Source: a virus
Lineage: Duplodnaviria; Heunggongvirae; Uroviricota; Caudoviricetes
Virus record (IMG/VR): IMGVR_UViG_2563366999_000003
Location: 1 to 23,211 of that record
Length of the DNA stretch: 23,211 nt
Strand: one strand, 5' to 3'
The notes beneath the pieces were generated by a model. The model had not been told where the DNA came from. It worked only from the letters and a program-made list of their open reading frames with translations, and ran no database searches. Each line of letters opens with the position of its first letter. The stretch's first letter is position 1. Below, in pieces: positions 419 to 23,211 of this stretch. A program made the position numbers and the translations under genes.

Positions 419-444
<26 letters not shown>
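1..444 (+). CDS. nu1: Terminase small subunit Nu1, 5'-truncated at window edge (C-terminal ~147 aa)
   Basis: Frame continuous from nt 1 (KGNEVLYDSAAVIKWYAERD...EYIEQSG), stop TAA 442-444. Matches my recollection of the lambda Nu1 C-terminal region. Overlaps the start of A by 26 nt as in lambda. Confidence 0.9.
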
Positions 445-4125
<3,681 letters not shown>

Positions 4126-4145
<20 letters not shown>

Positions 4146-5445: not shown

Positions 5446-5454
5446 GGGATGTTT

Positions 5455-5787
5455 ATGACGAGCAAAGAAACCTTTACCCATTACCAGCCGCTGGGCAACA
5501 GTGACCCGGCTCATACCGCAACCGCGCCCGGCGGATTGAGTGCGAAAACGCCTGCAATGACCCCGCTGATGCCGGATACCTCCACCCGTAAGCTGGTTGC
5601 GTGGGATGGCACCACTGACGGTGCTGCTGTTGGCATTCTGGCGGTTGCTGCTGACCAGACCAGCACCACGCTGACGTTCTACAAGTCCGGCACGTTCCGT
5701 TATGAGGATGTGCTCTGGCCGGATGCTGCCAGCGACGAGACGAAAAAACGGACCGCGTTTGCCGGAACGGCAATCAGCATCGTTTAA
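5455..5787 (+). CDS. D: Head decoration protein D (110 aa)
   Basis: ATG at 5455 ([27 protein letters not shown]...) 6 nt downstream of AGGG; matches lambda gpD. The upstream ATG at 5449 would add MF but has poorer SD spacing. Confidence 0.93.
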
Positions 5788-5804
5788 CCTGACCCTTCAT
5801 CACT

Positions 5805-5829
5805 AAAGGCCGCCTTTGCGGCTTTTTTT
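5805..5829 (+). terminator. Hairpin plus T7 run in D-E intergenic region (intrinsic-terminator-like)
   Basis: AAAGGCCGC-CTTT-GCGGC-TTTTTTT: 5-bp GC stem (5809-5813 / 5818-5822) extendable by A:U and G:U pairs, followed by 7 T at 5823-5829. A second T7 run lies immediately before the E start. Confidence 0.55.
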
Positions 5830-5842
5830 ACGGGATTTTTTT

Positions 5843-6868: not shown

Positions 6869-6870
6869 TC

Positions 6871-6888
6871 ATGGCCCTTCGGGGCCAT
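6871..6888 (+). other. Perfect 7-bp stem with TTCG loop in E-FI intergenic spacer
   Basis: ATGGCCC-TTCG-GGGCCAT: exact inverted repeat read directly from the sequence, 3 nt after the E stop. No downstream T-run, so not a canonical intrinsic terminator. Confidence 0.6.
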
Positions 6889-6909
6889 TGTCTCTCTGTG
6901 GAGAAGTCC

Positions 6910-7305
6910 ATGACGAAAGATGAACTGATTGCCCGTCTCCGCTCGCTGGGTGAACAACTGAACCGTGATGTCAGCCTGACGGGGACGAAAGAAGAACTGG
7001 CGCTCCGTGTGGCAGAGCTGGAAGAAGAGCTTGATGACACGGATGACACTGCCGGTCAGGACACCCCTCTCAGCCAGGAAAATGTGCTGACCAGGCATGA
7101 AAATGAGGTGGTGTCAGCGCAGCCGGGTACCGTGACTGATACGGCTGATCTGGTCACGGTTGTGGCACTGGTGACGCTGCATACTGATGCACTTCACGCC
7201 ACGCGGGATGAGGCTGTGGCATTTGTGCTGCCGGGAACGGCGTTCCGTGTTTCTGCCAGTGTGGCAGCCGAAATGACAGAACATGGCCTGGCCAGAATGC
7301 AATAA
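6910..7305 (+). CDS. FI: DNA packaging / head assembly protein FI (131 aa)
   Basis: ATG 6910 preceded by GGAGAAG; MTKDELIARLRSLGEQLNRDVSLTGTKEELALRVAELEEELDD... matches lambda gpFI. The track ORF start at 6871 lies inside the hairpin. Confidence 0.9.
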   Translation: MTKDELIARLRSLGEQLNRDVSLTGTKEELALRVAELEEELDDTDDTAGQDTPLSQENVLTRHENEVVSAQPGTVTDTADLVTVVALVTLHTDALHATRDEAVAFVLPGTAFRVSASVAAEMTEHGLARMQ

Positions 7306-7316
7306 CGGGAGGCGCT

Positions 7317-7670
7317 GTGGCTGATTTCGATAACCTGTTCGATGCTGCCATTGCCCGCGCCGATGAAACGATACGCGGGTACATGGGAACGTCAGCCACC
7401 ATGACATCCGGTGAGCAGTCCGGCGCAGTAATACGTGGTGTTTTTGATGACCCTGAAAATATCAGCTATGCCGGACAGGGCGTGCGTGTTGAAGGCTCCA
7501 GCCCGTCCCTGTTTGTCCGGACTGATGATGTGCGGCAGCTGCGGCGCGGCGACACGCTGACCATCGGTGAGGAAAACTTCTGGATAGACCGGATTTCACC
7601 GGATGATGGCGGAAGCTGCCATCTCTGGCTTGGGCGTGGCGTACCGCCTGCCGTTAACCGTCGCCGCTGA
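7317..7670 (+). CDS. FII: Head-tail joining protein FII (117 aa), GTG start
   Basis: GTG 7317 preceded by GGGAGG; MADFDNLFDAAIARADETIRGYMG... matches lambda gpFII. Confidence 0.92.
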   Translation: MADFDNLFDAAIARADETIRGYMGTSATMTSGEQSGAVIRGVFDDPENISYAGQGVRVEGSSPSLFVRTDDVRQLRRGDTLTIGEENFWIDRISPDDGGSCHLWLGRGVPPAVNRRR

Positions 7671-7681
7671 AAGGGGGATGT

Positions 7682-8215
7682 ATGGCCATAAAAGGTCTTG
7701 AGCAGGCCGTTGAAAACCTCAGCCGTATCAGCAAAACGGCAGTGCCCGGTGCCTCCGCAATGGCCATTAACCGCGTGGCCACAACGGCAATGAATCAGTC
7801 GGCGTCACAGGTTGCCCGTGAGACAAAGGTGCGGCGAAAACTGGTAAAGGAAAGGGCCAGACTGAAAAAGGCCACGGTCAAAAATCCGCACGTAAAAATC
7901 ATTGTTAACCGCGGTGATTTACCTGTCATCAAACTGGGGATACGGATCACCGGAAGTCGTCCCAACAGTACGCTACGGGCCGGTCAGCATCGTTATCAGC
8001 GGGCATTTATCCAGCGATTAAAAAATGGTCGCTGGCATGTCATGCAGCGTGTGGCCGGGAAAAACCGTTACCCCATTGATGTGGTGAAAATCCCGATGGC
8101 GGTGCCGCTGACCACGGCGTTTAAACAGAATATTGAACAGATACGGCGTGAACGTTTGCCGAAAGAACTGGAATACGCCCTGAAACAACAACTGAGGATT
8201 GCGATAAAGCGATGA
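7682..8215 (+). CDS. Z: Tail completion protein Z (177 aa)
   Basis: ATG 7682 preceded by AAGGGGGA; N- and C-terminal parts (MAIKGLEQAVENLSRISKTAVPGA... / ...GRWHVMQRVAGKNRYPIDVVKIPMAVPLTTAFKQNIE) match lambda gpZ. The central part looks shorter and different from what I recall. Confidence 0.88.
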   Translation: MAIKGLEQAVENLSRISKTAVPGASAMAINRVATTAMNQSASQVARETKVRRKLVKERARLKKATVKNPHVKIIVNRGDLPVIKLGIRITGSRPNSTLRAGQHRYQRAFIQRLKNGRWHVMQRVAGKNRYPIDVVKIPMAVPLTTAFKQNIEQIRRERLPKELEYALKQQLRIAIKR

Positions 8216-8607
8216 AACATACTGAACTCCGTGCAGCCGTACTGGATGCACTGGAGAAGCATGACACCGGGGCGACGCTTTTTGATGGTCGCCCCGCTGT
8301 TTTTGATGAGGCGGATTTTCCGGCAGTTGCCGTTTATCTCACCGGCGCTGAATACACGGGCGAAGAGCTGGACAGCGATACCTGGCAGGCGGAGCTGCAT
8401 ATCGAAGTTTTCCTGCCTGCTCAGGTGCCGGATTCAGAGCTGGATGCGTGGATGGAGTCCCGGATTTATCCGGTGATGAGTGATATCCCGGCACTGTCAG
8501 ATTTGATCACCAGTATGGTGGCCAGCGGCTATGACTACCGGCGCGACGATGATGCGGGCCTGTGGAGTTCAGCCGATCTGACTTATGTCATTACCTATGA
8601 AATGTGA
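8212..8607 (+). CDS. U: Tail terminator protein U (131 aa)
   Basis: ATGA overlap with Z stop; [54 protein letters not shown]... matches lambda gpU. Confidence 0.94.
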
Positions 8608-8614
8608 GGACGCT

Positions 8615-9355
8615 ATGCCTGTACCAAATCCAACAATGCCGGTGAAAGGTGCCGGGACCACACTGTGGGTTTATAAGGGGAGCGGTGACCCTTATGCGAA
8701 TCCGCTTTCAGACGTTGACTGGTCGCGTCTGGCAAAAGTTAAAGACCTGACGCCCGGCGAACTGACCGCTGAGTCCTATGACGACAGCTATCTCGATGAT
8801 GAAGATGCAGACTGGACTGCGACCGGGCAGGGGCAGAAATCTGCCGGAGATACCAGCTTCACGCTGGCGTGGATGCCCGGAGAGCAGGGGCAGCAGGCGC
8901 TGCTGGCGTGGTTTAATGAAGGTGATACCCGTGCCTATAAAATCCGCTTCCCGAACGGCACGGTCGATGTGTTCCGTGGCTGGGTCAGCAGTATCGGTAA
9001 GGCGGTGACGGCGAAGGAAGTGATCACCCGCACGGTGAAGGTCACCAATGTGGGCCGTCCGTCAATGGCAGAAGATCGCAGTACGGTGACGGCGGCAACC
9101 GGTATGACGGTAACGCCTGCCAGCTCCTCGGTGGTGACAGGGCAGAGCACCACGCTGACCGTGGCATTCCAGCCGGAGGGCGCAACTGACAAGAGCTTCC
9201 GTGCGGTGTCAGCGGATAAAACAAAAGCCACCGTGTCGGTCAGTGGTATGACCATCACCGTGAAAGGCGTTGCTGCAGGTAAGGTCAACATTCCGGTTGT
9301 ATCCGGTAATGGTGAACTTGCTGCGGTTGCAGAAATCACTGTCACCGACAGTTAA
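8615..9355 (+). CDS. V: Major tail tube protein V (246 aa) with C-terminal Ig-like (Big_2-type) domain
   Basis: ATG 8615 preceded by GAGGA (8606-8610); [36 protein letters not shown]... matches lambda gpV. C-terminal about 90 aa (roughly 9090-9355) is Thr/Val-rich, typical of the gpV Ig-like domain. The track start at 8585 lies inside U. Confidence 0.94.
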
Positions 9356-9370
9356 TCCGGAGAGTCAGCG

Positions 9371-9793
9371 ATGTTCCTGAAAACCGAATCATTTGAACAT
9401 AACGGCGTGACCGTCACGCTTTCTGAACTGTCAGCCCTGCAGCGTATTGAGCATCTCGCCCTGATGAAACGGCAGGCAGAACAGGCGGAGTCAGACAGCA
9501 ACCGGAAGTTTACTGTGGAAGACGCCATCAGAACCGGCGCGTTTCTGGTGGCGATGTCCCTGTGGCATAACCATCCGCAGAAGACGCAGATGCCTTCCAT
9601 GAATGAAGCCGTTAAACAGATTGAGCAGGAAGTGCTTACCACCTGGCCCACGGAGGCAATTTCTCATGCTGAAAACGTGGTGTACCGGCTGTCCGGTATG
9701 TATGAGTTTGTGGTGAATGATGCTCCTGAACAGACAGAGGACGCCGGGCCTGCAGAGCCTGTTTCTGCGGGAAAGTGTTCGATGGTGAGCTGA
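9371..9793 (+). CDS. G: Tail assembly chaperone G (140 aa)
   Basis: MFLKTESFEHNGVTVTLSELSALQRIEHLALMKRQAEQAESD... matches lambda gpG; stop TGA 9791-9793. Confidence 0.94.
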   Translation: MFLKTESFEHNGVTVTLSELSALQRIEHLALMKRQAEQAESDSNRKFTVEDAIRTGAFLVAMSLWHNHPQKTQMPSMNEAVKQIEQEVLTTWPTEAISHAENVVYRLSGMYEFVVNDAPEQTEDAGPAEPVSAGKCSMVS

Positions 9794-10209
9794 GTTTTGC
9801 CCTGAAACTGGCGCGTGAGATGGGGCGCCCCGACTGGCGTGCCATGCTTGCCGGGATGTCATCCACGGAGTATGCCGACTGGCACCGCTTTTACAGTACC
9901 CATTATTTTCATGATGTTCTGCTGGATATGCACTTTTCCGGGCTGACGTACACCGTGCTCAGCCTGTTTTTCAGCGATCCGAATATGCATCCGCTGGATT
10001 TCAGTCTGCTGAACCGGCGCGAGGCTGACGAAGAGCCTGAAGATGATGTGCTGATGCAGAAAGCGGCAGGGCTTGCCGGAGGTGTCCGCTTTGGCCCGGA
10101 CGGGAATGAAGTTATCCCTACTTCCCCGGATGTGGCGGACATGACGGAGGATGACGTAATGCTGATGACAGTATCAGAAGGGATCGCAGGAGGAGTCCGG
10201 TATGGCTGA
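9371..10209 (+). CDS. G-T: Tail assembly chaperone GT, made by -1 programmed ribosomal frameshift from G into the T frame
   Basis: Slippery heptamer G GGA AAG at 9769-9775 in the G zero frame; the -1 frame is open from there to TGA 10207-10209 (...GKVFDGELSFALKLAREMGRPDWRAMLAGMSSTEYADWHRF...). Arrangement is established for lambda G/GT. Confidence 0.85.
9769..9775 (+). promoter_or_regulatory. -1 frameshift slippery site GGGAAAG (X XXY YYZ) for G to GT
   Basis: Heptamer in the correct register relative to the G frame (codons GGA 9770-9772, AAG 9773-9775), about 6 codons before the G stop. Same motif as the lambda G-T site. Confidence 0.85.
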
Positions 10210-12769
10210 ACCGGTAGGCGATCTGGTCGTTGATTTGAGTCTGGATGCGGCCAGATTTGACGAGCAGATGGCCAGAGTCAGGCGTCATTTTTCCGGTACG
10301 GAAAGTGATGCGAAAAAAACAGCGGCAGTCGTTGAACAGTCGATGAACCGACAGGCGCTGGCTGCACAGAAAGCGGGGATTTCCGTCGGGCAGTATAAAG
10401 CTGCCATGCGTATGCTGCCTGCGCAGTTCACCGACGTGGCCACGCAGCTTGCAGGCGGGCAAAGTCCGTGGCTGATCCTGCTGCAACAGGGCGGTCAGGT
10501 GAAGGACTCCTTCGGCGGGATGATCCCCATGTTCAGGGGACTTGCCGGTGCGATCACCCTGCCGATGGTTGGTATCACTTCGCTAGCGGTGGCGACCGGT
10601 GCGCTGGCGTATGCCTGGTATCAGGGTGACTCAACCCTGTCTAATTTCAACAAAACGCTGGTCCTTTCCGGTAATCAGGCGGGACTGACGGCAGATCGTA
10701 TGCTGGCCCTGTCCAGATCCGGGCAGGCGGCAGGGCTGACGTTTAACCAGACCAGCGAGTCACTGACGGCGCTGGTGAATGCCGGTGTACGTGGTGGTGA
10801 GCAGTTTGAGGCAATCAGCCAGAGTGTGGCGCGTTTCTCCTCTGCATCCGGCGTGGAGGTGGACAAGGTCGCTGAAGCCTTCGGGAAGCTGACCACAGAC
10901 CCGACGTCGGGACTGACAGCGATGGCGCGCCAGTTCCATAACGTGACGGCGGAACAGATTGCGTATGTTGCTCAGTTGCAGCGTTCCGGCGATGGGGCCG
11001 GGGCATTGCAGGCGGCGAACGAGGCCGCAACGAAAGGGTTTGATGACCAGACCCGCCGCCTGAAAGAGAACATGGGTACGCTGGAGACCTGGGCAGACAG
11101 GACTGCGCGGGCATTCAAATCCATGTGGGATGCGGTGCTGGATATTGGTCGCCCGGACTCCTCTGCTGATATGCTCGCCAAAGCTGAAAAGGCTTTTGAT
11201 GAAGCGGATAAAAAATGGCAGTGGTATCAGAGCCGAAGCCACCGGCGCGGTAAAACCTCAGCATTTCTTGCCAATCTCCGTGGAGCATGGGAGGACAGAG
11301 CGAATGCGCAACTTGGGCTTTCAGCCGCCACGTTGCAGGCCGATCTTGAAAAGGCCAGAGAGATGGCAGCAAAGGACTGGGCCGACTCTGAGGCATCACG
11401 GCTGAAATATACCGAAGAGGCGCAGAAGGCTTACGAACGCCTGCAGACGCCGCTGGAGAAATATACCGCCCGTCAGGAAGAACTGAACAAGGCACTGAAG
11501 GACGGGAAAATCCTGCAGGCAGATTACAACACGCTGATGGCGGCGGCGAAAAAGGACTATGAAGCGACGCTGAAAAAGCCGAAACAGTCCGGCGTGAAGG
11601 TGTCTGCGGGCGATCGTCAGGAAGACAGTGCTCATGCTGCCCTGCTGACGCTTCAGGCTGAACTCCGGACGCTGGAGAAGCATGCCGGAGCAAATGAGAA
11701 AATCAGCCAGCAGCGCCGGGATTTGTGGAAGGCAGAAAGTCAGTTCGCGGTACTGGAGGAGGCGGCACAACGTCGCCAGCTGTCCGCACAGGAGAAATCC
11801 CTGCTGGCGCATAAAGATGAGACGCTGGAGTACAAACGCCAGCTGGCTGCACTTGGCGACAAGGTTACGTATCAGGAGCGCCTGAACGCGCTGGCGCAGC
11901 AGGCGGATAAATTCGCACAGCAGCAACGGGCAAAACGGGCCGCCATTGATGCGAAAAGCTGGGGGCTGACTGACCGGCAGGCAGAACGGGAAGCCACGGA
12001 ACAGCGCCTGAAGGAACAGTATGGCGATAATCCGCTGGCGCTGAATAACGTCATGTCAGAGCAGAAAAAGACCTGGGCGGCTGAAGACCAGCTTCGCGGG
12101 AACTGGATGGCAGGCCTGAAGTCCGGCTGGAGTGAGTGGGAAGAGAGCGCCACGGACAGTATGTCGCAGGTAAAAAGTGCAGCCACGCAGACCTTTGATG
12201 GTATTGCACAGAATATGGCGGCGATGCTGACCGGCAGTGAGCAGAACTGGCGCAGCTTCACCCGTTCCGTGCTGTCCATGATGACAGAAATTCTGCTTAA
12301 GCAGGCAATGGTGGGGATTGTCGGAAGTATAGGCAGCGCCATTGGCGGCGGCGCATCAGCGTCAGGCGGTACAGCCATTCAGGCAGCTGCGGCGAAATTC
12401 CATTTTGCGGCCGGAGGGTTTACGGGAACCGGCGGCAAATATGAGCCAGCGGGGATTGTTCACCGTGGTGAATTTGTCTTCACGAAGGAGGCAACCAGCC
12501 GGATTGGCGTAGGAAATCTTTACCGGCTGATGCGCGGCTATGCCACCGGCGGTTATGTCGGTACACCGGGCAGCATGGCGGACAGCCGGTCGCAGGCGTC
12601 CGGGACGTTTGAGCAGAATAACCATGTGGTGATTAACAACGACGGCACGAACGGTCAGATAGGGCCACAGGCACTGAAGGCGGTTTATGACGTAGCCCGT
12701 AAGGCGGCAATGGATGTTGTGACCGGGCAGATGCGCGATGGTGGTCTGTTCTCCGGAGGTGGACGATGA
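10202..12769 (+). CDS. H: Tail tape measure protein H (855 aa)
   Basis: ATG 10202 just upstream of the T-frame stop; very long ORF with coiled-coil-rich centre and Gly-rich C-terminal region, in the lambda H position. Stop overlaps M start (ATGA). Confidence 0.95.
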   Translation: MAEPVGDLVVDLSLDAARFDEQMARVRRHFSGTESDAKKTAAVVEQSMNRQALAAQKAGISVGQYKAAMRMLPAQFTDVATQLAGGQSPWLILLQQGGQVKDSFGGMIPMFRGLAGAITLPMVGITSLAVATGALAYAWYQGDSTLSNFNKTLVLSGNQAGLTADRMLALSRSGQAAGLTFNQTSESLTALVNAGVRGGEQFEAISQSVARFSSASGVEVDKVAEAFGKLTTDPTSGLTAMARQFHNVTAEQIAYVAQLQRSGDGAGALQAANEAATKGFDDQTRRLKENMGTLETWADRTARAFKSMWDAVLDIGRPDSSADMLAKAEKAFDEADKKWQWYQSRSHRRGKTSAFLANLRGAWEDRANAQLGLSAATLQADLEKAREMAAKDWADSEASRLKYTEEAQKAYERLQTPLEKYTARQEELNKALKDGKILQADYNTLMAAAKKDYEATLKKPKQSGVKVSAGDRQEDSAHAALLTLQAELRTLEKHAGANEKISQQRRDLWKAESQFAVLEEAAQRRQLSAQEKSLLAHKDETLEYKRQLAALGDKVTYQERLNALAQQADKFAQQQRAKRAAIDAKSWGLTDRQAEREATEQRLKEQYGDNPLALNNVMSEQKKTWAAEDQLRGNWMAGLKSGWSEWEESATDSMSQVKSAATQTFDGIAQNMAAMLTGSEQNWRSFTRSVLSMMTEILLKQAMVGIVGSIGSAIGGGASASGGTAIQAAAAKFHFAAGGFTGTGGKYEPAGIVHRGEFVFTKEATSRIGVGNLYRLMRGYATGGYVGTPGSMADSRSQASGTFEQNNHVVINNDGTNGQIGPQALKAVYDVARKAAMDVVTGQMRDGGLFSGGGR

Positions 12770-13095
12770 AAACCTTCCGCTGGAAAGTGAAACCCGGTAT
12801 GGATGTGGCTTCGGCCCCTTCCGTAAGAAAGGTGCGCTTTGGTGATGGCTATTCCCAGCGAGCGCCTGCCGGGCTGAATGCCGACCTGAAAACGTACAGC
12901 GTGACGCTTTCTGTTCCCCGTTGGGAGGCCACGGCGCTTGAGTCGTTTCTGGCTGAGCACGGGGGCTGGAAATCCTTTCTGTGGACGCCGCCTTATGAGT
13001 GGCGGCAGATAAAGGTGACCTGCGCAAAATGGTCGTCGCGGGTCAGTATGCTGCGTGTTGAGTTCAGCGCAGAGTTTGAACAGGTGGTGAACTGA
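12766..13095 (+). CDS. M: Minor tail protein M (109 aa)
   Basis: MKTFRWKVKPGMDVASAPSVRKVRFGDGYSQRAPAGLNADLKTYSVTLSVPRWEA... matches lambda gpM. The last base of its TGA stop is the A of the L start codon (TGATG). Confidence 0.94.
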   Translation: MKTFRWKVKPGMDVASAPSVRKVRFGDGYSQRAPAGLNADLKTYSVTLSVPRWEATALESFLAEHGGWKSFLWTPPYEWRQIKVTCAKWSSRVSMLRVEFSAEFEQVVN

Positions 13096-13793
13096 TGCAG
13101 GATATCCGGCAGGAAACACTGAATGAATGCACCCGTGCGGAGCAGTCGGCCAGCGTGGTGCTCTGGGAAATCGATCTGACAGAGGTCGGTGGAGAACGTT
13201 ATTTTTTCTGTAATGAGCAGAACGAAAAAGGTGAGCCAGTCACCTGGCAGGGGAGGCAGTATCAGGCGTATCCCATTCAGGGGAGCGGTTTTGAACTGAA
13301 TGGCAAAGGCACCAGTACGCGGCCCACGCTGGCAGTCTCTAACCTGTACGGTATGGTCACCGGGATGGCGGAGGATTTGCAGAGTCTGGTCGGCGGAACG
13401 GTGGTCAGGCGTAAGGTTTATGCCCGTTTTCTGGATGCGGTGAACTTCGTCAACGGAAACAGCGAAGCCGATCCGGAGCAGGAGGTGATCAGCCGCTGGC
13501 GCATCGAGCAGTGCAGCGAACTGAGCGCGGTCAGCGCGACCTTTGTGCTGGCCACACCGACGGAAACGGATGGCGCTGTTTTTCCGGGGCGTATCATGCT
13601 GGCCAACACCTGTACCTGGACCTATCGCGGTGATGAGTGCGGTTATAGCGGTCCGGCTGTCGCGGATGAATATGACCAGCCAACGTCCGATATCACGAAG
13701 GATAAATGCAGCAAATGCCTGAGCGGTTGTAAGTTCCGCAATAACGTCGGCAACTTTGGCGGCTTCCTTTCCATTAACAAACTTTCGCAGTAA
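13095..13793 (+). CDS. L: Minor tail protein L (232 aa)
   Basis: MQDIRQETLNECTRAEQSASVVLWEIDLTEVGGERYFFCNEQNEKGEPVTWQGRQYQAYPIQGSGF... matches lambda gpL; Cys-rich C-terminus present. Confidence 0.94.
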   Translation: MQDIRQETLNECTRAEQSASVVLWEIDLTEVGGERYFFCNEQNEKGEPVTWQGRQYQAYPIQGSGFELNGKGTSTRPTLAVSNLYGMVTGMAEDLQSLVGGTVVRRKVYARFLDAVNFVNGNSEADPEQEVISRWRIEQCSELSAVSATFVLATPTETDGAVFPGRIMLANTCTWTYRGDECGYSGPAVADEYDQPTSDITKDKCSKCLSGCKFRNNVGNFGGFLSINKLSQ

Positions 13794-13798
13794 ATCCC

Positions 13799-14542
13799 AT
13801 GACACAGACAGAATCAGCGATTCTGGCGCACGCCCGGCGATGTGCGCCAGCGGAGTCGTGCGGCTTCGTGGTAAGCACGCCGGAGGGGGAAAGATATTTC
13901 CCCTGTGTGAATATCTCCGGTGAGCCGGAGGATTATTTCCGGATGGCTCCGGAGGACTGGCTGCGGGCAGAGATGCAGGGTGAGATTGTGGCGCTGGTCC
14001 ACAGTCATCCCGGTGGTCTGCCCTGGCTGAGTGAGGCTGACCGGCGGCTGCAGGTGCAGAGTGATTTGCCGTGGTGGCTGGTCTGCCGGGGGGAGATTCA
14101 TAAGTTCCGCTGTGTGCCGCATCTCACCGGGCGGCGCTTTGAGCACGGGGTGACGGACTGTTACACACTGTTCCGGGATGCTTACCATCTGGCGGGGATT
14201 GAGATGCCGGACTTTCATCGTGAGGATGACTGGTGGTGTAACGGCCAGAATCTCTATCTGGATAATCTGGAGGCAACGGGGCTGTATCAGGTGCCGTTGT
14301 CAGCGGCGCAGCCGGGCGATGTGCTGCTGTGCTGTTTTGGTTCATCGGTGCCGAATCACACCGCCATTTACTGCGGCGACGGCGAGCTGCTGCACCATAT
14401 TCCTGAACAACTGAGTAAACGAGAGAGGTACACCGACAAATGGCAGCGACGCACACACTCCCTCTGGCGTCACCGGGCATGGCACGCATCTGCCTTTACG
14501 GGGATTTGCAACGATTTGGCCGCCGCATCGACCTTCGTGTGA
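13799..14542 (+). CDS. K: Tail tip assembly protein K (247 aa as called here): N-terminal JAMM/MPN metalloprotease-like domain plus C-terminal NlpC/P60-like domain
   Basis: ORF opens with ATG 13799, 5 nt after the L stop. Contains E19-x-C-G, then H68-S-H70-x7-S78-x2-D81 (complete JAMM motif) and Cys121 (DCYTLF) plus downstream His (NHTAIY) typical of NlpC/P60. From the internal Met49 onward it matches lambda gpK as conventionally annotated. Confidence 0.85.
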   Translation: MTQTESAILAHARRCAPAESCGFVVSTPEGERYFPCVNISGEPEDYFRMAPEDWLRAEMQGEIVALVHSHPGGLPWLSEADRRLQVQSDLPWWLVCRGEIHKFRCVPHLTGRRFEHGVTDCYTLFRDAYHLAGIEMPDFHREDDWWCNGQNLYLDNLEATGLYQVPLSAAQPGDVLLCCFGSSVPNHTAIYCGDGELLHHIPEQLSKRERYTDKWQRRTHSLWRHRAWHASAFTGICNDLAAASTFV

Positions 14543-15081
14543 AAACGGGGGCTGAAGCCATCCGGGCGCTGGCCACACAGCTTCCGTCGTTTCGCCAGAA
14601 ACTGAATGAGGGCTGGTATCAGGTACGGATTGCCGGGCGTGATGCAGGCGAAAATGAATTATCTGCCCGTCTTAATGAACCGCTGGCAAATGGTGCCGTG
14701 ATCCACATCGTACCGCGTCTTGCGGGAGCAAAAAGTGGCGGTGTGTTTCAGGCGGTGCTGGGTGCGGCGTTGATTGCTACGGCAATCTGGATGCCGGGGA
14801 TCAGTATCGCTTTCAGTGACATTCTCTTTTCAATGGGTGCGGCGATGACGCTTGGCGGTGTTGCACAGATGCTGGCACCGAAAGCGAGTACCGCAACAAC
14901 GACCAGCACGGATAACGGAAAGCAGAACACCTATTTCTCATCACTGGATAACATGGTTGCCCAGGGCAATGTTCTGCCCGTTCTGTTCGGTGAAATGCGC
15001 GTGGGGTCACGTGTGGCATCTCAGGAGATCAGTACAGCTGATGAAGGTGATGGTGGTGAAATTGTGGTGATTGGTCGCTGA
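14440..15081 (+). CDS. I: Tail tip assembly protein I (213 aa), ubiquitin-like N-terminus
   Basis: ATG 14440 inside the 3' end of K in another frame (103-nt overlap, as in lambda K/I); MAATHTLPLASPGMARICLYGDLQRFGRRIDLRVKTGAEAIRALATQLP... matches lambda gpI. Confidence 0.92.
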   Translation: MAATHTLPLASPGMARICLYGDLQRFGRRIDLRVKTGAEAIRALATQLPSFRQKLNEGWYQVRIAGRDAGENELSARLNEPLANGAVIHIVPRLAGAKSGGVFQAVLGAALIATAIWMPGISIAFSDILFSMGAAMTLGGVAQMLAPKASTATTTSTDNGKQNTYFSSLDNMVAQGNVLPVLFGEMRVGSRVASQEISTADEGDGGEIVVIGR

Positions 15082-15099
15082 TGGAACATGTTTTATGTG

Positions 15100-15128
15100 A
15101 AACCGCCTGCGGGCGGTTTTGTCGTTTA
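15100..15128 (+). terminator. Hairpin with U-rich tail in I-J intergenic region
   Basis: AAACCGCC-TGCG-GGCGGTTT: exact 8-bp inverted repeat (15100-15107 / 15112-15119) followed by TGTCGTTT. Located 19 nt after the I stop and 14 nt before the J SD. Confidence 0.45.
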
Positions 15129-15141
15129 TGGAGCATGAGGA

Positions 15142-18100
15142 ATGGGTAAAGGCAGCAGTAAGGGGCATACCCCGCGCGAAGCGAAGGACAACCTGAAGTC
15201 CACGCAGTTGCTGAGTGTGATCGATGCCATCAGCGAAGGGCCGATTGAAGGTCCGGTGGATGGGTTAAAAAGCGTGCTGCTGAACAGTACGCCGGTGCTG
15301 GACAGTGAGGGGAATACCAATATCTCCGGCGTCACGGTGGTGTTCCGGGCAGGTGAGCAGGAGCAGACTCCGCCGGAGGGATTTGAATCCTCCGGTTCCG
15401 AGACGGTGCTGGGTACGGAAGTGAAATATGACACGCCGATCACCCGCACCATCACGTCTGCAAATATCGACCGTCTGCGCTTTACCTTCGGTGTGCAGGC
15501 ACTGGTGGAAACCACCTCAAAAGGGGATCGGAATCCGTCGGAAGTCCGCCTGCTGGTTCAGATACAGCGTAACGGTGGCTGGGTGACGGAAAAAGACATC
15601 ACCATTAAGGGCAAAACCACCTCGCAGTATCTGGCCTCGGTGGTGGTGGATAACCTGCCGCCGCGCCCGTTCAGTATCCGGATGCGCAGGATGACACCGG
15701 ACAGCACCACAGACCAGCTGCAGAACAAAACGCTCTGGTCGTCATACACCGAAATCATCGATGTGAAACAGTGCTACCCGAACACGGCACTGGTTGGCGT
15801 ACAGGTGGACTCAGAGCAGTTCGGCAGTCAGCAGGTGAGCCGTAATTATCATCTGCGCGGGCGTATTCTGCAGGTGCCGTCGAACTATAACCCGCAGACG
15901 CGGCAATACAGCGGTATCTGGGACGGAACGTTTAAGCCAGCATACAGCAATAACATGGCCTGGTGTCTGTGGGATATGCTGACCCATCCACGCTACGGCA
16001 TGGGGAAACGTCTTGGTGCGGCGGATGTGGACAAATGGGCGCTGTATGTCATCGGCCAGTACTGCGACCAGTCAGTGCCGGACGGCTTTGGCGGCACGGA
16101 GCCGCGCATCACCTGTAATGCGTACCTGACCACACAGCGCAAGGCGTGGGATGTGCTCAGTGATTTCTGCTCGGCGATGCGCTGTATGCCGGTATGGAAC
16201 GGGCAGACGCTGACGTTCGTGCAGGACCGGCCGTCGGATAAGGTGTGGACCTATAACCGCAGTAATGTGGTGATGCCGGATGATGGCGCGCCGTTCCGCT
16301 ACAGCTTCAGCGCCCTGAAGGACCGCCATAATGCCGTTGAGGTGAACTGGATTGACCCGAACAACGGCTGGGAGACGGCGACAGAGCTTGTTGAAGATAC
16401 GCAGGCCATTGCCCGTTACGGTCGTAATGTCACGAAGATGGATGCCTTTGGCTGTACCAGTCGGGGGCAGGCACACCGAGCCGGGCTGTGGCTGATTAAA
16501 ACGGAACTGCTGGAAACGCAGACCGTGGATTTCAGCGTGGGCGCAGAAGGGCTTCGCCATGTGCCGGGCGATGTTATTGAAATCTGCGATGATGACTATG
16601 CGGGTATCAGCACCGGCGGGCGCGTGCTGGCGGTGAACAGCCAGACCCGGACGCTGACGCTCGACCGTGAAATCACGCTGCCATCCTCCGGTACCACGCT
16701 GATAAGCCTGGTTGACGGAAGCGGCAATCCGGTCAGCGTGGAGGTCCAGTCCGTCACCGACGGCGTGAAGGTAAAAGTGAGCCGTGTTCCTGACGGCGTT
16801 GCAGAATACAGCGTGTGGGGGCTGAAGCTGCCGACGCTGCGCCAGCGCCTGTTCCGCTGTGTGAGTATCCGTGAGAACGATGACGGCACGTATGCCATCA
16901 CTGCCGTGCAGCATGTACCGGAAAAAGAAGCCATCGTGGATAACGGGGCGCACTTTGACGGCGACCAGAGCGGCACGGTGAATGGTGTCACGCCGCCAGC
17001 GGTACAGCACCTGACCGCAGAAGTCACCGCAGACAGCGGGGAATACCAGGTGCTGGCGCGCTGGGACACGCCGAAGGTGGTGAAGGGCGTGAGCTTTATG
17101 CTTCGCCTGACCGTGGCAGCGGATGACGGCAGTGAGCGGCTGGTCAGCACGGTCCGGACGACGGAAACCACATACCGCTTCAGGCAGCTGGCGCTGGGAA
17201 ACTACAGGCTGACAGTCCGGGCGGTAAATGCGTGGGGACAGCAGGGCGATCCGGCGTCGGTATCGTTCCGGATTGCCGCCCCGGCAGCGCCGTCACAGAT
17301 TGAGCTGACGCCGGGCTATTTTCAGATAACCGCCACGCCGCATCTTGCGGTTTATGATCCGACGGTACAGTTTGAGTTCTGGTTTTCTGAAACGAAGATT
17401 TCAGATGTCTCACAGGTGGACAAATCTGCCCGCTATCTTGGTACGGCACTGTACTGGGTAGCCTCCGGCCAGAATATTAAGCCGGGCCATGATTATTATT
17501 TTTATATCCGCAGTGTGAATACCATTGGTAAATCGGCATTCGTGGAGGCTGTCGGCCAGCCGGGTAATAATCCTGAAGAGTATCTCAATTTTTTTGAAGG
17601 GAAAATAAACAGCACCCTGCTGGGGCAGGAGCTGAATGATCGTATTAATGCCTCTGCATTGCGCAGTGAAGTTGAGCAACTGGAGGATGAGGTCAATCAG
17701 CGACTGGAGAGTGATATTGCCGAGGTGACCCAAAAAATCGGGGAAACTGAAAACAGCCTCACGCAGCTGGTTGCTAAAAAAAATGATGAGCAGTCACTGG
17801 CCATATCCCAGGTGAGTCAGAAAGTGGACAACGTCAGTAGCGAACTCACGCAAACGGTCAGTCAGAGTAATGAGGAGAATGCACGCCAGATAGCGCAGGT
17901 TCGTCAGTATGTGGATGAAAAAAGCAGTGAAATCATCTCGACGACAGACAAAAAACTGGGCGAGCAGGAAGCAACAATCCAGCAGATACAAAAGGTTCAG
18001 ACAGACACCAGTAATAACCTGAACAGTATGTGGGCCGTGAAACTGCAGCAGATGCAGGATGGTCGCCTTTACATTGCGGGTATCGGTGCCGGTATTGAGA

Positions 18101-18843
18101 ATACCCCTGACGGTATGCAGAGTCAGGTGCTGCTGGCGGCAGACAGGATTGCGTTCATTAATCCGGAGAACGGTAACACCACTCCAGCACTGGTCACGCA
18201 GGGGGGACAGACGTTTCTCAATGAAGCGCTGATTAAGACCCTTATTGCTCCCACAATTACCAGTGGTGGCAATCCTCCGGCATTTTCCCTGACATCAGAC
18301 GGAAAGCTGACCGCTAAAAATGCGGATATCAGTGGCAGTGTGAATGCGAACTCAGGGACGCTCAACAACGTCACGATAAATGAGAACTGTCAGATTAAGG
18401 GGAAACTGTCCGCCAACCAGATTGAAGGCGATATTGTCAAAACGGTCAGCAAGTCTTTCCCCCGCACGAGCACTTATGCCAGCGGCACCATTACGGTCAC
18501 GATTAGTGATGATCAGAAGTTTGACCGACAGGTCATGATCCCGGCTCTGCTGTTTAAAGGAAGCAGGAAGGAAAATTATGGCAGTAATAATCAACAGTCT
18601 TATGTTTATTCTGTATGCCGTTTGCAGGTAACGAAAAACGGGACAGAAATTTTTAACCAGTCAACAACGGATGCTCCGGCGGTTTTTTCTTCCGTTATTG
18701 ATATGCCTGCGGGGCAGGGAACGTTGACGTTAAAGTTTACGGTCTCTTCTTCAATGGTCAATAACTGGACACCGACAACCAGTATCAGCGATTTGCTTGT
18801 TGTGGTGATGAAGAAATCCACCGCAGGTATCACGATTAGCTGA
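15142..18843 (+). CDS. J: Central tail fibre / host specificity protein J (1233 aa)
   Basis: ATG 15142 preceded by GAGG; N-terminal and central parts ([42 protein letters not shown]...) match lambda gpJ. The product is about 100 aa longer than I recall for lambda J, with an extended coiled-coil segment and a divergent C-terminal region. Confidence 0.95.
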
Positions 18844-18910: not shown

Positions 18911-19510
18911 ATGCGTAAATTATGTGCTGTTATTCTGTCCGCAGTAGTCTGGCTGGTTGCCGCTGGTACGCCAGCGAGCGCAGCAGAGCATCAGTCCACA
19001 CTAAGCGCCGGGTATCTTCAGACCCATACTGATATGCCAGGCAGCGATGACCTGAAGGGCATTAACGTGAAATACCGTTATGAATTTACGGACACGCTGG
19101 GGCTGGTGACGTCATTCAGCTATGCAGGAGACAAGAATCGCCAGCTGACCCGTTACAGCGATACCCGCTGGCATGAAGATTCCGTGCGTAACCGCTGGTT
19201 CAGCGTGATGGCGGGTCCGTCTGTACGCGTGAATGAATGGTTCAGTGCGTATGCGATGGCGGGTGTGGCTTACAGCCGTGTGTCGACCTTCTCCGGGGAT
19301 TATCTGCAGGTGACCGACAGCAAGGGGAAAACGCACGATGTGCTGACCGGAAGTGATGACGCTCGCCACAGTAACACCTCTATGGCGTGGGGAGCTGGCG
19401 TGCAGTTTAACCCGACCGAATCGGTGGCCATTGATGTCGCTTATGAAGGTTCCGGCAGTGGCGACTGGCGCACTGACAGTTTCATCGTAGGTGTCGGTTA
19501 TAAATTCTGA
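18911..19510 (+). CDS. lom: Lom outer-membrane protein (Ail/Lom/OmpX/PagC family beta-barrel), lysogenic-conversion moron
   Basis: ATG 18911 preceded by GAGAGG; signal peptide MRKLCAVILSAVVWLVAAGTPASA followed by AEHQSTLSAGY...; ends with the typical C-terminal aromatic beta-strand (VGVGYKF). Matches lambda Lom. Confidence 0.93.
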   Translation: MRKLCAVILSAVVWLVAAGTPASAAEHQSTLSAGYLQTHTDMPGSDDLKGINVKYRYEFTDTLGLVTSFSYAGDKNRQLTRYSDTRWHEDSVRNRWFSVMAGPSVRVNEWFSAYAMAGVAYSRVSTFSGDYLQVTDSKGKTHDVLTGSDDARHSNTSMAWGAGVQFNPTESVAIDVAYEGSGSGDWRTDSFIVGVGYKF

Positions 19511-19530
19511 TTAGTAGTACAGCGTGATGA

Positions 19531-19558
19531 AAGCCCGCCGGTTCAGGCGGGCTTTTTT
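19531..19558 (+). terminator. Intrinsic terminator downstream of lom
   Basis: GCCCGCC-GGTTCA-GGCGGGC (7-bp GC-rich stem 19533-19539 / 19546-19552) followed by TTTTTT (19553-19558), 21 nt after the lom stop. Confidence 0.75.
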
Positions 19559-19569
19559 GTGGGGTGAAT

Positions 19570-22500
19570 ATGACGGTTAAGATTTCAGGTGTACTGAAAG
19601 ATGGAGCAGGCAAACCGGTACAAAACTGCACCATTCAGCTAAAGGCCAGACGCAACAGCACCACGGTGGTGGTGAACACGGTGGCCTCAGAAAATCCGGA
19701 TGAAGCCGGGCGTTATAGTATGGACGTTGAGTATGGCCAGTACAGCGTCACCCTGCTGGTTGAAGGTTTTCCGCCTTCGCATGCCGGGACCATCACAGTG
19801 TATGAGGATTCAAAGCCGGGTACGCTGAATGATTTTCTCGGCGCAATGACGGAGGATGATGCCCGTCCGGAGGCACTGCGCCGTTTTGAACTGATGGTGG
19901 AAGAGGTGGCGCGTAACGCGTCCGCAGTGGCACAGAATGCGGAAGCCGCGAAGAAGTCAGCCAGCGATGCCAGCACATCTGCCAGTGAGGCGGAAACCCA
20001 TGCGACTGATGCTGCAGACTCAGCACGCGCAGCCAGCACGTCAGCCGGACAGGCTGCATCATCTGCTCAGTCAGCATCTTCCAGCGCAGGAACAGCATCA
20101 ACAAAGGCCACTGAAGCCTCAAAAAGTGCTGCCGCTGCAGAGTCCTCAAAAAGTGCGGCGGCCACCAGTGCCAGTGCCGCGAAAACGTCAGAAACGAACG
20201 CGGCAGCGTCACAACAATCCGCAGCCACCTCAGCATCCACCGCGACCACGAAAGCGTCAGACGCTGCCACCTCAGCCCGGGATGCGGCGGCTTCAAAAGA
20301 GGCGGCAAAATCATCAGAAACGAGCGCAGCCTCGAGCGCCAGTAGTGCAGCTTCCTCGGCTACGGCGGCAGGAAATTCCGCGAAGGCGGCAAAAACGTCC
20401 GAGACGAACGCCAGGGCTTCTGAAACGGCAGCGGAACAGAGTGCCTCCGCAGCAGCAGACTCAAAAACAGCGGCTGCGTCGTCTGCCAGTGCCGCGTCAA
20501 CAAGTGCCGGGCAGGCCTCAGCCAGTGCCACCGCCGCCGGGAAATCGGCGGAAAGCGCGTCGTCATCAGCGACAACAGCTACCGCAAAAGCGACTGAGGC
20601 GACGAATCAGGCTACAGCTGCTAAAAATTCAGCATCGGCAGCAAAATCCTCTGAAACAAATGCAAAGACTTCAGAAGACAATGCCGCTTCCTCTAAGGCG
20701 GCAGCTGCTGAATCTGCAAGTTCTGCGTCTGCATCAGCCACCTCGGCGTCCGCTTCAAAAGATGAGGCGATCAGGCAGGCGTCAGCTGCGAAGGGTAGTG
20801 CTTCAACGGCATCCACGAAAGCAACAGAGGCGGCAGGCAGTGCGACGGCTGCATCTCAGAGCAAAACTGCTGCTGAATCCGCTGCGACCCGTGCGGAAGC
20901 TGCTGCTGATCGTGCTGAAGAGATTGCCGGTGCGGTTGCGATGGAAGACGCAAGCCTTACCACTAAAGGTGTTGTGAAACTTAGCAGTGCTGTCGACAGC
21001 ACCAGTGAATCGCTGGCCGCAACGCCAAAGGCAGTTAAAGCAGTCAATGACAATGCGAACAGCAGGGTGCCATCTGACCGAAAAATTAACGGGAAAGCAC
21101 TGACTGGGGATATCACATTAACGCCGAAAGATATTGGTACTTTAAATTCAGTAACGATGTCTTTCTCTGGCGGGGCTGGGTGGTTCAAACTGGCTACGGT
21201 TACCATGCCACAAGCGAGTTCCATCGTTTACATCACATTGATTGGTGGTGCCGGATACAACGTCGGCTCCCCACAGCAGGCAGGTATTTCAGAACTGGTT
21301 CTACGAGCAGGCAATGGAAACCCCAAAGGGATTACCGGAGCTTTGTGGAAGCGTACAGCCGTCGGATTAACGAATTTCGCCTGGATCAACACATCCGGCG
21401 ATACATATGATATTTACGTTGAGACTGGCAATTATGCGACGAGTGTAAATATCCATTGGGATTGTACTGCAAATGCGTCAGTTTCTGTTTATACATCGCC
21501 AGCCTATTCAGCGAGTAAGCCTTCCGGCGTTACCGATGGTGTTGTTTATACGATGTATAGCTCACATCAGAAACCTACACCATCAGATATTGGAGCACTG
21601 CCAACAACCGGAGGAACAGTTTCAGGTCCGTTGTCTGTTACTGGTGGGATCACCGGGGCACTGAAGGGGAACGCCGATACCGCGACGAAACTTGCGGCAG
21701 CCAAAAAAATTAACGGTGTTAAGTTTGATGGCTCGGCGGATATTAATCTCACGCCGGAAAATATTGGTGCATTTGCCCTACGTGCGACGGGGGCTTATGC
21801 GGATTCGGATGGAGCCGTTCCGTGGAATGCTGAATCCGGTGCATATAATGTCACGCGTTCTGGCGACTCCTGTCTTGTTGCAAACTTTTATACCGGTGTG
21901 GGGAGTTGCCAGACTCTCCAGATTCGCGCTCATTACAAGAATGGCGGTCTGTTTTACCGTTCTTCGCGTGATGGTTATGGCTTTGAGGAAGACTGGACTC
22001 AGATTTATACCAAAAAAGACAGCATTCCGGGAGTAAATACGACAGGTAACCAGAACACTACGGGTAATGCGGCAACAGCTACAAAACTACAGACGGCAAG
22101 AACTATCGGCGGTGTGAGCTTTGATGGTACTGCGAATATTAACTTGCCTGGTGTTAATACGACTGGTAACCAGAGCACTACAGGCAATGCAGCTACTGCC
22201 ACGAAGTTGCAGACAGCGCGTACTATTAATGGCGTGTCGTTTGACGGTTCGGCAAATATTTCTCTGTCACCAGCAAATATTGGTTGCCCGGCATCTCCAA
22301 CTGGCTGGTTAGGCACAGGGAGTAATGGTGCATCAATAACAACGGCTCAGTTAGTGACGATATTGCAGAATAATGGTGCCTTCAATACAAAAGCATGGGT
22401 GGCACGCTGTGCCTGGGCATACGCTGACAGCGCCTCCATACCAGACAGTGAAACAGGCTGCGGCATTATTCCACTGGCGGGGGCGGTGATAGAAGTATTC

Positions 22501-23211
22501 AGCCACAGTGCAACTTATTACACCATTCGAATAACAACAGCCACGACGACAAGTGTCTCTGGCGCACTCACTAATGCGGAATTTATCTATGTGTTTAATG
22601 GCACAGCTTATTCCCCCGGATGGCGTCGTGCACTGAACACAAAGAAACTGCCCACACCGCTTGAAATTGGCGCTTACAGCATATCGGAGATTAACCAACT
22701 CAATAAAAGTTTTATCACGTCATCAAAACTCGAAGGCGGCTCGTTAGATGCAAACTTCCAGACGTTAAGTTGTTATTATTTGCAAATATTCGACATTCAG
22801 ACAACAACCGATAGTCCTAACATGTTCGTAAGTCCGGTTGCTGGTTACAACATGGTATTTCGTTCGACTTCATCCCGTCGATACAAGACGGATATCGAGT
22901 CTTTAGAGAACAGGTACGCGGACGAGTTGTTGAAACTTCGTCCTGTATGGTATCGCTCGACTTGTGAAAGGGACAGAAAGGACTGGGGACATTATGGCCT
23001 TATTGCAGAAGAAGTCGGAGAGATAGCACCGCAATATGTTCACTGGCGTCCTCTTACAGACGAGGATGATCCAGGTATAGCGTCTGATAATGGGATGGTT
23101 GCAGAAGGCGTGATGTATGACCGTCTGGTTGTTCCACTCATTCATCATATTCAGAAACTGACAAAAAGGGTTGAGGAGCTTGAAGCAAAGTTAAAGCTAT
23201 CCGAGCTATAA
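19570..23211 (+). CDS. stf: Side tail fibre protein Stf (1213 aa from ATG 19570): lambda-Stf-like N-terminus, Ala/Ser-rich shaft, fibre repeats, divergent distal tip, C-terminal intramolecular-chaperone-like autoprocessing domain
   Basis: N-terminus MTVKISGVLKDGAGKPVQNCTIQLKARRNSTTVVVNTVASENPDEAGRYSMDVEYGQYSV matches lambda Stf. ATG 19570 has GGGG 5 nt upstream; an in-frame GTG at 19564 would add 2 aa. Uninterrupted ORF to the TAA at the last 3 nt of the window. C-terminal about 115 aa resemble endosialidase-type intramolecular chaperone (peptidase S74) domains. Confidence 0.92.
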   Translation: MTVKISGVLKDGAGKPVQNCTIQLKARRNSTTVVVNTVASENPDEAGRYSMDVEYGQYSVTLLVEGFPPSHAGTITVYEDSKPGTLNDFLGAMTEDDARPEALRRFELMVEEVARNASAVAQNAEAAKKSASDASTSASEAETHATDAADSARAASTSAGQAASSAQSASSSAGTASTKATEASKSAAAAESSKSAAATSASAAKTSETNAAASQQSAATSASTATTKASDAATSARDAAASKEAAKSSETSAASSASSAASSATAAGNSAKAAKTSETNARASETAAEQSASAAADSKTAAASSASAASTSAGQASASATAAGKSAESASSSATTATAKATEATNQATAAKNSASAAKSSETNAKTSEDNAASSKAAAAESASSASASATSASASKDEAIRQASAAKGSASTASTKATEAAGSATAASQSKTAAESAATRAEAAADRAEEIAGAVAMEDASLTTKGVVKLSSAVDSTSESLAATPKAVKAVNDNANSRVPSDRKINGKALTGDITLTPKDIGTLNSVTMSFSGGAGWFKLATVTMPQASSIVYITLIGGAGYNVGSPQQAGISELVLRAGNGNPKGITGALWKRTAVGLTNFAWINTSGDTYDIYVETGNYATSVNIHWDCTANASVSVYTSPAYSASKPSGVTDGVVYTMYSSHQKPTPSDIGALPTTGGTVSGPLSVTGGITGALKGNADTATKLAAAKKINGVKFDGSADINLTPENIGAFALRATGAYADSDGAVPWNAESGAYNVTRSGDSCLVANFYTGVGSCQTLQIRAHYKNGGLFYRSSRDGYGFEEDWTQIYTKKDSIPGVNTTGNQNTTGNAATATKLQTARTIGGVSFDGTANINLPGVNTTGNQSTTGNAATATKLQTARTINGVSFDGSANISLSPANIGCPASPTGWLGTGSNGASITTAQLVTILQNNGAFNTKAWVARCAWAYADSASIPDSETGCGIIPLAGAVIEVFSHSATYYTIRITTATTTSVSGALTNAEFIYVFNGTAYSPGWRRALNTKKLPTPLEIGAYSISEINQLNKSFITSSKLEGGSLDANFQTLSCYYLQIFDIQTTTDSPNMFVSPVAGYNMVFRSTSSRRYKTDIESLENRYADELLKLRPVWYRSTCERDRKDWGHYGLIAEEVGEIAPQYVHWRPLTDEDDPGIASDNGMVAEGVMYDRLVVPLIHHIQKLTKRVEELEAKLKLSEL
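19915..20930 (+). repeat. Low-complexity Ala/Ser/Thr/Lys-rich periodic region of stf (predicted helical shaft)
   Basis: About 340 codons dominated by A, S, T, K, E. The motif AAK(T/S)SET(N/S)A recurs with its K codon at 20182, 20308, 20392 and 20644, i.e. spacings of 126, 84 and 252 nt, all multiples of 42 nt (14 codons). Confidence 0.8.
22030..22269 (+). repeat. Two tandem 120-nt (40-codon) tail-fibre repeats within stf
   Basis: Unit 1 22030-22149 (GVNTTGNQNTTGNAATATKLQTARTIGGVSFDGTANINLP) and unit 2 22150-22269 (GVNTTGNQSTTGNAATATKLQTARTINGVSFDGSANISLS). A more degenerate copy lies upstream (GNADTATKLAAAKKINGVKFDGSADINLTPENIGA, about 21660-21780). Confidence 0.9.

Follow-up and report, generated by a model that had tools for sequence, protein, structure and literature searches.

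The window examined here, a 23.2-kb stretch of DNA (23,211 nucleotides, IMG/VR record IMGVR_UViG_2563366999_000003), holds the late operon, with the head and tail genes, of a lambda-like Escherichia coli prophage, and its last gene is stf, which encodes the side tail fiber (Stf). The gene directly follows J and lom, matching the lambda-type gene position, and isolated lambda-like phages, Chlobot, PhiR34_1 and 2H10 among them, share about 94-95% identity with the window as far as position 21056. We consider it very likely that the product is an intact, mosaic Stf of lambda type that carries a Mu S'-type knob, a variable tip and a Peptidase_S74 (S74) chaperone domain (Table 1).

The mechanical open reading frame (ORF) of stf runs from a GTG at 19564 to 23211, and residues are numbered here from that position, not from the ATG at 19570, which is the probable start. 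Upstream of this ATG lie the lom terminator hairpin and then a Shine-Dalgarno-like GGGGTG; the hairpin, a GC-rich stem followed by a T-run between lom and stf (aaagcccgccggttcaggcgggcttttttg; 19520-19558), looks like an intrinsic terminator set right before the stf ribosome-binding site. Translation from ATG 19570 yields exactly the 1213-residue product held at NCBI as ELG37097.1 ("phage tail fiber protein [Escherichia coli KTE84]"), whose cluster at 90% identity has 99 members.

Table 1. Positions of stf, its modules and the other genes named in the text; residues are counted from 19564, and the genes upstream of stf are taken from the ORF list
Feature	Position	Strand	Residues	Remarks
stf (side tail fiber)	19570..23211	+		last gene; stop is the final codon of the window
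phage_tail_N attachment domain, lambda-like	19570..19971	+	3-136	Pfam PF08400
Ala/Ser-rich shaft	19939..20928	+	126-455	
Conserved junction motif	20929..21084	+	456-507	...KGVVKLSSAVDSTSESLAATPKAVKAVNDNANSR...; KGVVKLSSA...ATPKAVK
Domain D1, globular	21085..21660	+	508-699	
Fiber repeat 1	21661..21768	+	700-735	GNADTATKLAAAKKINGVKFDGSADINLTPENIG; recombination junction; PENIG motif at residue 731
Domain B, gp37_C / Mu S' 324-440 type	21769..22026	+	736-821	
Two tandem 120-nt (40-residue) fiber repeats	22027..22269	+	822-902	end in SPANIG
Domain A, knob of Mu S' / P1 S' / P2 H type	22270..22647	+	903-1028	
Short variable distal tip	22648..22869	+	1029-1102	GC 0.412, lowest in gene
Peptidase_S74 intramolecular chaperone (predicted)	22870..23208	+	1103-1215	113 residues
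Predicted catalytic residues	22870-22872 (Ser), 22885-22887 (Lys)		1103, 1108	predicted scissile bond Thr1102-Ser1103
terminase	419-2344			first in operon, followed by portal and head genes
tape measure H	10202-12769			
J	15142-18843			
lom	18911-19510			

Module Architecture of Stf

The first part of the fiber resembles that of lambda. Its attachment domain matches PF08400 with an E value of 2e-72 (241.9 bits against a cutoff of 26.6), the 94-residue lambda Stf N terminus in PDB entry 9e7m is matched at E 2.4e-50, and residues 3-328 are 83% identical to lambda orf-401, similarity to which ends near residue 501 (BLASTP). DNA matches to lambda are limited to 19564-20478 (86%) and 20783-21038 (71%); lambda-like similarity stops at about 21040-21066, with most lambda-like phages ceasing to match at 21056, and the junction motif of residues 456-507 matches residues 105-156 of Mu S. 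At about 20182-20500 Stf is some 107 residues longer than its nearest relative, a fiber of 1108 residues found in E. coli 377323_2f and in many cluster members, through additional Ala/Ser-rich shaft, and two alignment blocks overlap here in the coordinates of that relative; the difference is one of fiber length, through internally repetitive sequence.

Beyond the junction motif, domain D1 returned no Pfam or PDB relative, and it is common to phi458, the SSU5-like phage-plasmid Cyrano and a prophage of the type found in E. coli SE11 (92% amino-acid identity to SE11). Domain B matches Pfam PF12604 (gp37_C) over residues 751-821 (E 2.6e-7, 31.1 bits against a cutoff of 22.5) and, in a match spanning residues 736-856, residues 324-440 of the Mu S' structure 8ju3 (E 1.4e-21); the gp37_C domain is internal in Stf, not C-terminal. 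The tandem repeats that follow belong to direct repeat family D2 and share the consensus GVNTTGNQxTTGNAATATKLQTARTIxGVSFDGxANIxL (Tandem Repeats Finder: period 120, 1.9 copies, 73% matches). Domain A in turn matches residues 186-320 of 8ju3 (E 2e-25, spanning residues 887-1028), and its structural model finds the same entry by Foldseek (E 2.7e-8, 42% identity). It is 38-45% identical by tblastn to the fibers of Mu, D108, P7, P1 and P2 and 80-84% identical at the nucleotide level to P1-like and SSU5-like plasmid fibers, the latter similarity stopping at 22625. The tip, which is predicted to form the C-terminal end of the mature fiber, matched nothing in Pfam or PDB; NCBIfam gave no matches, and Pfam gave none for domain A and the tip together. 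A short motif, (T/S)P-x-(D/N/E)-IG, occurs five times, at residues 521, 673, 731, 903 and 1032, all of them at module boundaries, where shuffling gives an expected count of 0.05.

A Predicted Self-Cleaving Chaperone at the C Terminus

The initial annotation of this DNA had treated the region up to the gene end as a receptor-binding tip and had missed that its last 113 residues are a predicted S74 chaperone. Residues 1103-1159 of 1215 match Pfam PF13884 at E 4e-8 to 5e-9 (33.8-36.7 bits against a cutoff of 22). The same C-terminal domain, with a Thr-Ser...Lys (i, i+5) arrangement, is found in T5 pb1 and in the K1F endosialidase, and in T5 pb1 the Thr1263-Ser1264 bond is cleaved, Lys1269 activates the serine and the substitution S1264A stops cleavage (PMC4690869). 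Ser1103 and Lys1108 of Stf have the i, i+5 spacing of this serine and lysine, and Thr1102 precedes them as Thr1263 does in T5 pb1. The motif RSTSSxRYK does not vary among all eight sequences aligned, of which the window's is one, and in an alignment of 48 sequences the conservation of its residues S201, S202 and K206 reaches 90% or more.

Cleavage and trimer folding of Stf are what we infer by analogy. The chaperone domain would nucleate trimerization and folding starting from the C terminus; Ser1103, activated by Lys1108, would then cut the Thr1102-Ser1103 bond, and the chaperone would be let go. Its release would expose the short tip as the distal end, so that the mature fiber would end at Thr1102 (22869).

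A fiber that has its own predicted self-cleaving intramolecular chaperone would not need a separate Tfa. In the nearest genome, E. coli 377323_2f (NZ_CP039404; 99.4% identical from 20440 on), no tfa follows stf, the genes downstream being those for a DUF1653 protein and a hydrolase, three small ORFs and prfC; this absence is consistent with self-chaperoning. Nor does that genome have an invertible segment, an invertase or an alternative fiber end downstream of stf, whereas phi458 has the invertase Pin.

Base Composition of stf

The same annotation had singled out 22270-22870 as an AT-richer, compositionally distinct module. The sequences that it quoted are indeed present, a DNA string at 22771-22821 and, in the stf frame, the peptides CPASPTGWLG (residues 908-917) and GWRRALNTK (residues 1019-1027), and the region is AT-rich: GC content is 0.465 in 22270-23211 and 0.466 in 22270-22870, against a mean of 0.571 (standard deviation 0.018, minimum 0.530) for 942-nt windows across 1-17000. 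The GC profile across stf is not uniform, and its lowest values (0.39-0.41) fall in 22640-22860. What the profile does not contain is a step at 22270. The 1.2 kb before it (21050-22269) have a GC content of 0.485, and a split at 22270 (0.486 versus 0.465) has a log-likelihood ratio (LLR) of 0.47, which is not significant. A maximum-likelihood change-point test, judged against shuffles with a maximum LLR of 7.3, places the sole significant break in stf at 20957, where GC falls from 0.582 to 0.477 (LLR 19.1), and finds no break above shuffle expectation within 21060-23211. The two coordinates do mark boundaries, though of protein modules rather than of composition, 22270 lying in the proline codon of SPANIG and 22870 being the first base of the Ser1103 codon.

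Codon positions place the onset of AT-richness further upstream still. GC at third codon positions (GC3) is about 0.46 from codon 126 or so of stf (near position 19940) onward, whereas most of the head and tail genes reach 0.61-0.68 and gene I reaches 0.55; this leaves 22270-22870 without a compositional identity of its own. Total GC stays high in the proximal half of stf despite this low GC3, because Ala and Ser codons raise GC at second positions to about 0.8. We also considered amino-acid composition alone as the source of the AT-richness and rejected it, since GC3 is low as well. Lambda's own sequences are similar in this respect: orf-314 has a GC content of 0.517 and tfa one of 0.489, and the related fibers compared here lie at 0.45-0.49. 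AT-richness is a general property of distal fiber genes; as the 3' end of lambda's stf and lambda tfa share it, it does not by itself point to the swap relative to lambda that had been proposed.

These data bear on the possibility that the low GC of 22270-22870 records a recent, discrete horizontal acquisition of the tip alone from an AT-richer donor. The contrast with the head and tail genes, the placement of the lowest GC values inside the segment and the presence of similarity breakpoints near 22270 and 22625 would all fit such an event. Yet the change-point test contradicts it, the preceding 1.2 kb have nearly the same GC, GC3 is low long before the segment begins, lambda's Stf tip and tfa and the related fibers are low in GC as well, and the segment consists of two modules of different history, as described below. 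We therefore regard a discrete acquisition of this kind as improbable.

Mosaic History and Breakpoints

Piecewise BLAST of stf against six relatives resolves the gene into segments with different affinities. At the nucleotide level, the lambdoid phage phi458 matches 19564-21695 (90%); Cyrano matches 20103-21695 (89%) and 22025-22625 (83.5%); the E. coli SE11 prophage matches 20440-21755 (82.5%) and 22364-23196 (83.5%), in pieces that are nearly contiguous in SE11; and T1-like phages match 22930-23161 only (76%). The order in the SE11 protein is D1, one hybrid repeat, A, tip and chaperone, its gene lacking residues 732-870 or so (domain B and one repeat) in a gap that starts and ends inside repeat copies. 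Breakpoints thus cluster at 21056 (the junction motif), at 21695-21755 (repeat 1), at 22025-22270 (the 120-nt repeats) and at about 22625-22660 (PTPLEIG), and because they fall at junction motifs and repeats, they support exchange at conserved fiber motifs. A swap at conserved fiber repeats had been suggested from the outset, and in this respect the suggestion holds; its position does not, as the dominant boundary between lambda-type and other sequence is placed by the alignments at about 21056, some 1.2 kb upstream of 22270. The further proposal that the C terminus is unlike that of lambda Stf is borne out: BLASTP against orf-314 gives best E values of 0.18-0.49, and no colinear alignment of the tip with lambda Stf was seen.

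The segment that had been taken for a single tip module is a Mu S'-like knob followed by a short tip, and the two have not traveled together. Identity to E. albertii P0001 is 100% in knob A, 84% in the tip and 92% in the chaperone; identity to the SE11 prophage is 67%, 86% and 92%, respectively; and among more distant relatives it is 63-73% for knob A (where present), 26-47% for the tip and 65-77% for the chaperone. Because the identities of knob and tip differ from relative to relative, we read them as two independently assorting modules. Of 5426 complete E. coli genomes, only 8 have the full 942-nt block of A, tip and chaperone, which is of SE11 type in four of them and at least 99% identical in the other four; no phage in the phage collection covered 80% or more of it. 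Taken separately, its halves are common: knob A is carried mostly by P1-like and SSU5-like plasmids, and hundreds of chromosomal prophages have the chaperone part. A P1-like origin of the middle part of the gene was considered and rejected, the best matches being SSU5-like phage-plasmids with a lambda-type J.

The rarity of this block, together with the many database relatives that are partial and the SE11-type homolog that is split into a pseudogene and a 518-residue ORF, could be taken to mean that the prophage is defective, with stf left to decay in it and the odd architecture of the gene being nonfunctional debris. The ORF, however, is unbroken over 1213 codons with its attachment domain and catalytic motif intact, the late operon upstream retains its close identity to isolated phages (Chlobot, PhiR34_1), the distal 2.2 kb are present in four genomes with an identity of at least 99%, and the protein cluster is large; decay is in our view very improbable.

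Two relatives have features of their own. In SE11 the split stf homolog consists of an N-terminal pseudogene and the 518-residue ORF (2880-5708 of the SE11 stretch examined) and is followed by a second prophage tail-fiber gene, a complete one, with a DUF4376 protein; the SE11 prophage thus has two tandem fiber loci. In phi458, which shares the first 2.1 kb of stf, the region downstream of the fiber gene (6085-8084 of the stretch examined) holds an inverted "tail fiber" fragment, IS1 and a Pin-type DNA invertase, which suggests an invertible fiber-tip switch on an otherwise lambda-type Stf.

Comparison with Known Fiber Systems

The fiber of the window has the attachment domain, the Ala/Ser-rich shaft, the junction motif and the position after J and lom in common with Ur-lambda Stf (orf-401 plus orf-314). 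The latter is about 774 residues long, compared with 1213 here, its C-terminal 314 residues have no similarity to the Stf of the window (BLASTP), and it relies on a separate Tfa, whereas the window's Stf ends in a predicted self-cleaving chaperone. Both knobs of Mu S' (gp52, PDB 8JU3), at residues 186-320 and 324-440, have counterparts in Stf (A and B, respectively), but in reversed order, B being followed by two repeats and then by A. Among the SSU5-like phage-plasmids, which include Cyrano and E. coli plasmids of about 110 kb, the fiber of Cyrano (CYRAN_21) has the order A then B, as in Mu S'; beyond the equivalent of 22625, Cyrano has a different C terminus, without the tip and chaperone of the window's Stf. 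In the fibers of Mu, P1/P7 and P2 the terminal tip is assisted by a separate chaperone protein, U/U' or G. The S' fibers of Mu, P1 and P7 and the H fiber of P2 have no S74 domain, and Stf has a tip and an S74 domain at its C terminus instead.

Homologs of the Stf tip and chaperone also occur as separate proteins of 231-234 residues, such as bas05_0029 of the T1-like phage PeterMerian (3839-4534 of its stretch) and an ORF of the lambdoid PhiR49_1 (4587-5291 of its stretch). They are 58% identical to Stf over 161 residues and 65-66% identical in the chaperone domain, and they are encoded by an ORF downstream of the fiber gene with an N terminus of its own of about 50 residues, whereas in the Stf of the window and in the SE11 and E. 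albertii type, tip and chaperone are fused in frame behind knob A. The separate proteins are annotated as "putative lateral tail fiber chaperone", "tail fiber domain-containing protein" or "hypothetical". Because they have an Stf-like tip before the cleavage site and the invariant RSTSSxRYK, they may be distal tip subunits that cleave themselves and not chaperones acting in trans. Variation between single-chain and split lateral fibers is known (the BASEL paper). Read as a "Rosetta stone", the fusion in Stf would mean that the widespread separate proteins are self-cleaving tips that dock on a fiber end and that Stf itself is polyvalent, binding laterally through knobs B and A as well as at its terminal tip; we offer this extension as speculation and think it unlikely.

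Receptor and Function

We picture the fiber as follows. Its proximal residues, about 500 in number, are of lambda type, comprising attachment domain, shaft and junction motif, and the modules distal to about 21056 are drawn from a pool shared by phi458, SSU5/P1-type phage-plasmids, Mu/P2-type myoviruses and T1-like siphoviruses and are joined at (T/S)P-x-(D/N/E)-IG motifs and GNAATATKL...NGVxFDG repeats. Stf is most likely a homotrimeric side fiber for reversible first contact with the cell. Knobs A and B have their relatives in fibers of Mu, P1 and P2 that recognize lipopolysaccharide (LPS). OmpC has been suggested as the receptor of lambda Stf, and engineered lambda-P2 Stf chimeras remain functional while switching their target from OmpC to LPS (bioRxiv 10.1101/2022.09.30.509847); the lateral fibers of small siphoviruses are thought to bind O-antigen, although direct demonstration is lacking (the BASEL paper). 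Because of the LPS recognition by the knobs' relatives, the siphovirus lateral fibers and the lambda-P2 chimeras, a surface glycan (LPS core or O-antigen), and not OmpC, is probably the receptor of Stf. A receptor other than that of lambda Stf, as had been expected for the tip, is plausible.

Several observations weigh against our reading of the distal end. The tip has just 74 residues or so, compared with about 290 in the bullet domain of T5 pb1, to which it is unrelated, so that the receptor-binding surface could be knob A or B. An AlphaFold2 monomer model of residues 903-1215, built from the alignment of 48 sequences, has a mean predicted local distance difference test (pLDDT) score of 55.5 and a predicted template modeling (pTM) score of 0.36; the tip and the greater part of the chaperone have pLDDT values under 50, and only the terminal helix is confident. 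Foldseek of this model against PDB returned just 8ju3, for knob A, and no match for the chaperone fold, and the only PDB match of tip and chaperone, to the C terminus of 8hqz ("L-shaped tail fiber assembly"), is marginal (E 0.014). Since the monomer model is poor, the folds assigned to tip and chaperone rest on sequence profiles. Moreover, as the window stops at the stf stop codon, the absence of tfa or accessory ORFs downstream is read from a relative.

The first of these points leads to an arrangement in which knob A, or A and B together, would be the true receptor-binding sites and the tip only a structural cap or stalk, in a multi-site adhesin. Between close relatives knob A varies most: its identity to SE11 is 67%, falling to 48% over the first 33 residues, whereas that of the tip is 86%. 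Both knobs have their homologs in the variable part of Mu S' and P1 S' that determines host range, fibers with two receptor-binding domains, a T5-like tip and an intramolecular chaperone have been described (10.1101/2024.09.12.612763), and a multi-site adhesin would be akin to the dual-domain T-shaped fibers of BASEL phages. Across distant relatives, however, it is the tip that varies most, knob A remaining at 63-73% identity, and in many phages, Mu, P2 and KVP40 among them, A-type domains occupy the middle of the fiber, a placement more typical of shaft elements. We regard binding by the knobs as possible but hold it only tentatively, and continue to prefer a mosaic lambda-type fiber with a variable distal tip.

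Implications

For annotation, the gene is better described as an stf of lambda type that combines a Mu S'-like knob with a predicted self-cleaving S74 chaperone than as a Tfa-dependent lambda ortholog. Its module map and recurring junction motifs would provide natural splice points for chimeric lambda fibers that fold without a helper protein, and the rare combination of A, tip and chaperone is a candidate for a distinct host range. All parts come from well-known families, and the exact protein is already public under a generic name. That lambda, Mu, P1, P2 and T-even phages exchange fiber modules horizontally has been recognized since the early 1990s, and this ordinary case of phages exchanging host-recognition parts leaves the view of tail-fiber evolution unchanged.

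The Receptor-Binding End of J

The product of J has 1233 residues. It is 93% identical to lambda J up to residue 825 or so, carries an insertion of about 100 residues at approximately 830-937, and in its C-terminal 300 residues is just 51% identical to the receptor-binding end of lambda J. As the C terminus of J and Stf both diverge, both host-range modules of the prophage, the J end and the Stf end, are unlike those of lambda. The 3' part of J (17251-18843) is AT-rich, with a GC content of 0.490 against 0.594 in the 5' part, and no GC change point in the window is stronger than the one at 17317, within J.

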